Of a stretch of 5,802 nt of DNA, positions 79 through 1,326 are shown piece after piece. Origin of the DNA: a virus (taxonomy: Duplodnaviria > Heunggongvirae > Uroviricota > Caudoviricetes); IMG/VR virus record IMGVR_UViG_2706794681_000007; one strand, written 5' to 3'. The translations under genes were made by a program, and so were the position numbers. The notes under the pieces were generated by a model. That model was not told the origin of the DNA and searched no databases. It saw nothing but the letters and a program-made list of their open reading frames with translations. Positions within the stretch are counted from its first letter, which is position 1, and every line of letters begins with the position of its first letter.

Positions 79-1326
79 TTAACTGATCGGCATTACACCA
101 CCGGGACGCGGATTCATATCTTCCAGGTCGCGGCAGTCATTGGAAGAGTAAATTCCCCAGTTGATCCCGGTGGCGTAGGCTTCAAAACGGGACTTCATAT
201 CCCCGCGCAGTAACGCCCCGGCGTTAAATTTGGCGTAATAAACGCCCTGCTTACTTTTTCGTACCAGTCCGGTGTTGATCCGCTGTTCGATGCGGGTCAG
301 ATACGGCACCAGTGAATAGTTGATAAATCCCAGCCCCAGCTCTTCGATATTGTTGAAGGTGGCGCGATCGGTGTTCTGCACCATGTGCAACGGCACCCGG
401 AACAGACGACAGATTTCTTCCAGCTGAAACTTGCGGGTTTCCAGGAACTGACTGTCCTCGGCGTTCAGCGCCATCGACTTCCAGTCCAGCCCCATTTCCA
501 GAATCATCGGGCGGTGAGCATTGCCAAGCCCCGTGTGACACTCCTCAAAATCTTTCTTCAGACGCTCGTAAGCATCCGGCGTGAGCTTTTGTTCCGTACG
601 CAACACACCGGATGTCACCGCACCATTACTAAACAACCTGGCACCGTGCTCCTCGGTTGCCGCTGCCAGTGAAATGGCCTCACGCGCATACGCAATGGGA
701 TTCAGCCCGACAAGTCCATCCAGCGTCAGGGTGCGCACATGCCAGATTTCATTCTGGGTCAACACATCCACGGAACCATCCGGAAACGTCACCTGATAAA
801 CCGGCTGCCACTGGCTGTTCAGCTTCGGTTCCACACAGCCCGGATCTATCGGAAGAAGCTCCACCACTTCTCCCAGTGCCTTTACCTTGTAGGCGTAAAA
901 ATTCCCCCGTAGACACAGGCAGACAATAACCAGCTCCCAGAATTCCTGCGGTGTCATGTAGCCATTAGGTTTTGCCGAAACCAACTTATGCAGTCGTTCA
1001 TCCACCGCCCGTGTTTTCAGGGTACCGCTGATTTTGTAGAGACTGCAGGGCAGCATACCAACAGACTCTGCCAGCACCCTGACGCAAGAATAGACCGCCG
1101 TCAGGCGCATGGCCCGCTGGCTACTGATCCGCTTTCCGGTATAGGTGTCGTATGACAGCCCGATAGCATCAGCAGTTCTGCTGGCGTGGTCACCGGCACA
1201 TCGCTTTTTCGTTGAAATAATCCCGAAAAGAACACTATTTACCTCCGCCGACAGACTGCCGTGTACGGTCGAGATATCGCGCCACCAGCCACGACCAGAA
1301 CAGGCACAGCGCCCCGGCAACAACAA
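79..1326 (-). CDS. Phage portal protein, HK97 family (start codon uncertain)
   Basis: The 415-aa translation has the conserved HK97-type portal core (e.g. [46 protein letters not shown]-like C-terminal region) and sits directly downstream of the large terminase. The track start at 1326 is a TTG with no Shine-Dalgarno and overlaps the upstream small ORF. Stop is TAA at 79-81. Confidence 0.85.

Follow-up and report, generated by a model that had tools for sequence, protein, structure and literature searches.

A portal gene with a one-base deletion and an IS4 insertion in a phiP27/ST64B-type prophage of Shigella sonnei

Gene content of the window

The window analyzed here is the whole 5,802-nt stretch of the IMG/VR record IMGVR_UViG_2706794681_000007. 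The genes identified in it are as follows.

5196-4981, minus strand: holin
4981-4484, minus strand: RrrD-type lysozyme
4499-4023, minus strand: Rz
3980-3159, minus strand: HNH endonuclease and P27-family small terminase, with a run of 101 N inside (3642-3742)
1429-3162, minus strand: large terminase (TerL) of 577 aa, upstream of the portal and intact in the window, with TerL_ATPase and TerL_nuclease domains
1235-1417, minus strand: ymfR-like membrane-protein gene of 60 aa, with its TAG stop codon at 1237-1235
79-1326, minus strand: long TTG-started ORF with portal homology

The order HNH, small terminase (TerS, P27 family), TerL, ymfR, and portal is shared with phiP27 (portal gene L38), Salmonella phage ST64B (portal gene Sb4), Shigella phages SfI, SfII, and SfIV, and Escherichia coli prophages, and the identical gene order is annotated in these phages and in more than 1300 E. 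coli genomes. In these relatives, the small gene is ymfR, and it is followed by a “phage portal protein” and then by an “HK97 family phage prohead protease.” The annotation of the ymfR-like gene in relatives is either “protein YmfR” or “membrane protein,” and the exact protein encoded in the window is named YmfR in S. sonnei. In the public collection, 4305 blocks have contigs that encode exactly the TerL protein of the window; the complete chromosomes among them include CP000038.1, which is S. sonnei Ss046 in literature usage. We consider it very probable, as one part of the explanation developed below, that the window comes from the S. sonnei chromosome and represents the late region of an HK97-like prophage of the phiP27/ST64B/e14 type.

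Two further observations concern the terminase genes. First, the 101 N at 3642-3742 stand in for 246 nt that are found in the S. sonnei loci, and this 246-nt stretch contains the 3' end of the HNH gene, a GC-rich intergenic region with a hairpin, and the start of TerS. The 273-aa “HNH-TerS fusion” ORF at 3159-3980 therefore exists only because of a gap or mask in the assembly, and the GC-rich, hairpin-containing region between HNH and TerS is possibly a cos region. Second, TerL was called as a protein of 498 aa, rather than 577 aa, in three S. sonnei assemblies (L018, L020, and L021; locus 2257-3989), one of which has a separate 90-aa piece. These shorter calls could mean that the prophage has decayed further in some strains, or they could stem from indel errors in long reads.

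The portal start and the single-base deletion

The following features were located around the beginning of the portal gene.

1242-1246, minus strand: GGAGG Shine-Dalgarno sequence, 6 nt before the GTG
1233-1235, minus strand: GTG, assigned as the authentic portal start codon
1101-1235, minus strand: 44-codon ORF made up of 21 authentic portal codons, 23 out-of-frame codons, and a TGA stop codon (1103-1101)
1173-1175, minus strand: frameshift site at codon 21 (CTG), where one G of the ancestral CTG/GCT is gone and the remaining G is 1173
96-1173, minus strand: portal body (true codons 22-380), with its frame displaced by the deletion, covering the Pfam Phage_portal domain
1108-1110, minus strand: ATG, which encodes “Met73” when counted in the TTG-started ORF and an internal Met43 when counted in the true portal
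1320-1326, minus strand: TTG codons that open the long ORF, a spurious upstream extension within ymfR

The original prediction stated that a GTG at 1235 with a good Shine-Dalgarno sequence and the conserved portal body lie in different frames, and both the sequence and the translations of the ORFs confirm this. The stop codon of the ymfR-like gene and the GTG share one base (TAGTG), the last of the TAG and the first of the GTG. The relatives phiP27, ST64B, E. coli A36, UTI89, and K-12 e14 all have the same Shine-Dalgarno sequence, GTG, and stop-start overlap. The homologous GTG is the annotated portal start in E. coli A36 (WP_240745495.1), phiP27 (NP_543090.1), UTI89 (WP_000466267.1), and the beeE gene of K-12 e14, and all of these proteins have the same N-terminus. 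Furthermore, residues 1-21 of the 44-codon ORF are identical to the N-terminus of the annotated portals of the relatives at 20 of 21 positions. Given this match and the invariant start signals, the 44-codon arrangement is no chance ORF. When the N-terminus was reconstructed as a 45-residue query, it aligned in a single frame from residue 1 in 30 phage records, with identity as low as 71% for the Klebsiella phages and 59% for those of Yersinia, so the portal start is conserved well beyond the close relatives. On these sequence comparisons, the portal truly starts at the GTG at 1235, as had been suspected from its context. The N-terminal motif had also been compared to those of HK97-type portals. 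We confirmed the motif for the phiP27/ST64B/SfII/e14 subfamily and for the Klebsiella and Yersinia relatives, but not for HK97 gp3 itself, against which the first 26 residues are unaligned.

There were two irregular records of this start. In the ST64B sb4 record (L004 1763), the portal CDS begins one codon 5' of the GTG, at an ATA translated as “I,” which looks like an annotation slip of the original record. Additionally, OR844959.1 (1764 bp), filed as “Enterococcus phage Efm 3-10,” is 97% identical to the enterobacterial TerL-ymfR-portal stretch and has a single-frame portal start; it is likely to be a contaminant or a mislabelled record.

One missing nucleotide between the start and the body had been proposed, in a T4 or an A5 homopolymer run. 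The DNA alignment of window 1300-1060 with phiP27, ST64B, E. coli A36, and UTI89 contained exactly one gap, of 1 nt, which changes CTGG to CTG; the loss of a single base thus stood, but its place is the GG at 1173. Both homopolymer runs are unchanged in all five aligned sequences, the A5 run at 1209-1205 as given and the T4 run at 1229-1226 rather than 1230-1227. The frame switch against intact relatives therefore occurs at G1173, outside the homopolymers: the GTG frame is authentic through codon 21, and the frame of the portal body is authentic from the GCT at 1173-1171 onward. When one G was put back, the codons GAA CTG GCT GAT GCT (E L A D A) were restored, and the frame was free of stops and gaps for 380 codons, from the GTG to window position 97. 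The reconstructed 380 aa were 97.6% identical to A36, 97.4% to phiP27, and 91% to UTI89 and ST64B. The comparison with close relatives, which had been suggested as a check, thus gave a conserved start and single-frame portals throughout. The substitutions next to the deletion (GAG>GAA and GCG>GCT) are synonymous relative to the ST64B/e14 protein (AELADAIG), which indicates that they arose before the deletion, when selection still acted on the gene, and that the deletion alone is disruptive.

The predicted undeleted allele, GAACTGGCTGATGCT, was present in the viral contig L023 with a G as the additional base and with the portal frame open from the GTG, as found by a pattern scan of viral contigs that accepted either state. 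Among the complete E. coli genomes and in the phage collection, the best match to the window allele was 95% and no identical allele occurred, so the ancestral state is directly visible in the viral-contig scan rather than in those two collections.

A dropped base in a draft assembly could produce the same pattern from a portal gene that is really intact. The source assembly does have a 101-N gap, and single-base indels are a common type of error; an error in a homopolymer had been one of the proposals. However, the site is a GG dinucleotide and not a long homopolymer. The 241-nt portal-start region of the window, deletion included, occurred exactly in 18 of the 18 S. sonnei chromosomal or contig loci that we gathered via terminase and YmfR look-ups, with CP000038.1 (Ss046) among the complete chromosomes, and in six further contigs of the viral catalogue. 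The annotation of Ss046 holds the same shifted ORF. Because 24 other, independently assembled loci are identical, the lesion is fixed in the S. sonnei lineage rather than introduced by one assembly, and we regard a sequencing or assembly error as having a next to negligible chance. The possibility of a true frameshift in a defective prophage, also raised in the original prediction, was thus borne out by these loci together with the 97.6% identity of the reconstruction to A36.

Programmed recoding was also considered: the ribosome might shift by -1, or slippage might occur during transcription, somewhere in 1235-1104, so that the body is read on from the GTG start and a regulated portal results. 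The body frame is open across the whole 44-codon overlap, re-reading of G1173 gives the exact ancestral protein, and the sequence CGA-AAA-AGC might permit rare slippage of tRNA-Lys. On the other hand, the overlap (1235-1101) contains no X XXY YYZ slippery heptamer, the A run has just 5 nt, and all of the intact homologs examined are single-frame, so the two-frame arrangement is not conserved. The portal is, moreover, truncated by IS4 regardless of how its start is read. We therefore consider programmed recoding extremely unlikely.

The body could instead be translated from one of the surrogate starts, the TTG at 1326 or 1323 or the Met at 1110, to give a functional or co-opted fragment with an altered N-terminus. 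The portal-homologous frame is open from 1326, and before the ATG at 1110 it has just three TTG codons (1326, 1323, and 1320) and zero ATG or GTG codons. Gene callers have in fact used such starts. The Ss046 annotation AAZ89394.1, “putative portal protein [Shigella sonnei Ss046],” is a 414-aa product that starts at the TTG at 1323 and spans the lesion, and a 343-aa product started at Met43 was called in at least 1000 S. sonnei contigs. The Pfam domain, at true residues 47-373, also lies after Met43. However, the TTG codons lie inside ymfR without a Shine-Dalgarno sequence, and the approximately 50 residues that they add have no counterpart in homologs; the suspicion that had been voiced about the TTG at 1326 was therefore justified. 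The N-terminus is part of the protein, given the 30 phage portals that align from residue 1 and the HK97 conservation that begins at true residue 27. This last point also contradicts the idea that homologs start at the equivalent of Met43, which is downstream of residue 27, and non-canonical initiation as a whole found no support. At the other end, the C-terminal 33 residues are swapped for 5 IS4-encoded residues. A functional product of alternative initiation is thus very unlikely; both the ORF opened by TTG (79-1326) and the 343-aa product started at Met are artefacts that arise when ORFs are called on a pseudogene. In the S. sonnei assemblies L005, L013, and L019, no product is recorded for the portal body, which is consistent with a pseudogene flag.

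The IS4 insertion at the 3' end of the portal gene

The original prediction dealt with the portal start and did not mention that the portal gene is also cut by IS4 at window 95/96. The features concerned are the following.

1-95, minus strand: first 95 nt of IS4, with the terminal repeat TAATGCCGATCAG... and a hairpin, located after portal codon 380
96-107, minus strand: IS4 target site GTCCCGGTGGTG of 12 bp, duplicated at the other IS4 end in the scaffold L029

The portal homology stops at window 96. Positions 95-1 begin with TAATGCCGATCAGTTAAGG... and include the hairpin AATCCGGAAACGCTCACTTGTTTCCGGATTTTTTT, which looks like a terminator. IS4 contributes five foreign codons (VMPIS) and the TAA stop codon at 81-79 to the end of the long ORF. 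Thousands of E. coli records carry features annotated as “IS4-like element IS4 family transposase” whose ends match window 1-95. The complete IS4 is 1426 bp long in five S. sonnei loci (L008, L009, L014, L019, and L022), where it ends in ...TAACTGACTGGCATTA and encodes a transposase of 442 aa with the Nterm_IS4 (PF13006) and DDE (DDE_Tnp_1, PF01609) domains. The exact portal/IS4 junction was found in 17 of the 18 S. sonnei loci; the 18th contig ends short of it.

IS4 duplicates 11-13 bp of its target site upon insertion. The target duplication is not present at the right IS4 ends in the complete S. sonnei genomes. To the right of IS4 are raiA-pheL-pheA-tyrA in L008, L009, L014, and L019, and bamE-recN directly in L022, and in L005-L007, L010, and L011, IS4 is cut by an IS3-family element before bamE. 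No portal 3' end or protease DNA was found within approximately 4.6 kb past IS4 in the S. sonnei loci. These varied flanks without a target duplication, 1.4-5 kb past the portal in L005-L022, imply later IS-mediated rearrangement by inversions or deletions.

The second copy of the target site was found in L029 (IMGVR_UViG_2663762996_000003). At 2790-4260, this scaffold has the frameshift allele together with a seemingly uninterrupted portal 3' end. These are followed by an N, an IS4 hairpin whose loop is inverted, IS4 nt 69-1426, and a second copy of the portal end with protease, capsid, and tail genes. More exactly, to the right of the second GTCCCGGTGGTG are the last 33 portal codons and the genes for the S78 protease, capsid, connector, head completion, tail tube, and tape measure. 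Just ahead of the junction, L029 switches to a UTI89-like allele (GGTGGGG), and it is probably a chimeric scaffold joined with a second, UTI89-like prophage. We had considered L029 as a case of the frameshift without IS4, which would have given the order of the two lesions, but this was dropped because of the N-join, the inverted loop, and the allele switch. In that genome, the half of the prophage with the head and tail genes survives beside the right end of IS4.

The single-base deletion and the IS4 junction at 95/96 can serve as lineage markers for S. sonnei, and the screening targets for the two lesions are the 25-mer CCAGCAGAACTGCTGATGCTATCGG and the portal/IS4 junction. Exact-pattern scans of the species-level genome-contig collection gave no match for the frameshift site or for the IS4/portal junction, presumably because S. 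sonnei has no separate representative in that collection.

A portal pseudogene and its known counterparts

The reconstructed protein matched the PF04860 Phage_portal profile with E=2.5e-107 and 359 bits (cut-off, 39.1 bits), covering profile positions 2-321 of 321. It also matched the HK97 portal (8cez/8fql) with E=4.6e-51 over reconstructed residues 27-380, as well as 9lbn and 6te8. Its neighbours are TerL and ymfR upstream, and in the window IS4 takes the place of the protease downstream; the protease (PF04586) and then the capsid (PF05065) follow the portal in relatives, and are also found at the right flank of IS4 in L029. An uninterrupted ORF for the whole protein does not exist, owing to the 1-nt deletion at codon 21/22 and IS4 after codon 380, and the gene is therefore a pseudogene derived from an HK97-family portal.

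Based on these results, we favor ordinary pseudogenization, with the loss of one G near the start and the insertion of IS4 near the end of the portal gene, as the explanation of the locus, with a probability of roughly 95%. In this explanation, translation of the ancestral portal, of about 413 aa, was coupled to that of the ymfR-like gene and began at GTG 1235. The deletion of one G from the GG at codon 21/22, probably the result of simple slippage or an error during replication in the S. sonnei lineage, would cause ribosomes from the GTG to stop after 44 codons. The product of the coupled GTG would then be a 44-residue peptide with 21 authentic residues, and any product of the body would lack both its N-terminus and its C-terminus. 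The insertion of IS4 after codon 380 with a 12-bp duplication would have removed the last 33 codons and parted the portal from the protease, capsid, and tail genes. A functional portal is thus probably not made. The two lesions aside, the body matches intact homologs at 97.6% identity and contains no internal stop, so the decay is recent.

Selection might conceivably still act on a portal fragment. The production of either a trace -1 slippage product or a Met43 fragment is very improbable, even when the two are taken together. If a C-truncated portal, started at Met43 or made by a -1 slip, were kept in S. sonnei as a dominant-negative “decoy portal,” it would poison the assembly of portal rings or procapsids when HK97-like phages superinfect, and this would account for the stop-free body; we regard such a role as highly improbable.

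The portals of the phiP27/ST64B type share GGAGG-N6-GTG, overlapping the ymfR stop, with the window, and they have 91-98% amino acid identity over 380 residues when the base is restored. They are single-frame proteins of about 413 aa, and the genes for the S78 prohead protease and the capsid come after them, whereas the copy in the window lacks the G and is cut by IS4. The closest analogue of the S. sonnei portal pseudogene is beeE (b1151) of the K-12 cryptic prophage e14, which lies beside ymfR and is a decayed portal of the same family with an identical start context (GGAGGTAAATAGTG). However, beeE stays in frame for about 135 residues before a deletion or fusion truncates it, whereas the S. 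sonnei copy is broken both early (-1 nt) and late (IS4). The HK97 gp3 portal (PDB 8cez/8fql) is only a distant relative in sequence.

IS4 is one of five insertion sequences (IS1, IS2, IS4, IS600, and IS911) that have expanded in all Shigella species, in which pseudogenization is widespread, with numerous pseudogenes reported from S. sonnei (Hawkey et al., 2020; PMC7373316). The IS4 inside a coding sequence and the rearranged flanks match this IS-driven decay, and the window locus is one more instance of it. It is an already-known kind of event in a locus that has already been sequenced and annotated, and the value of the result is mostly practical: it fixes where the portal really starts (GTG 1235) and precisely what was lost (one G at 1173). 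The 414-aa and 343-aa “portal proteins” of S. sonnei are mis-started pseudogene products, and the prophage can be marked as unable to build capsids. The locus has no bearing on open questions of translation initiation or recoding, and its start is not a new kind of start.

Finally, two amino acid differences were observed in the body. In the S. sonnei portal, at about 480-490, C occurs (FEECHTG) where A36 and UTI89 have R (FEERHTG), and at about 140-146, S occurs (YSSNDC) where they have P (YSPNDC). These changes may reflect relaxed constraint after inactivation.
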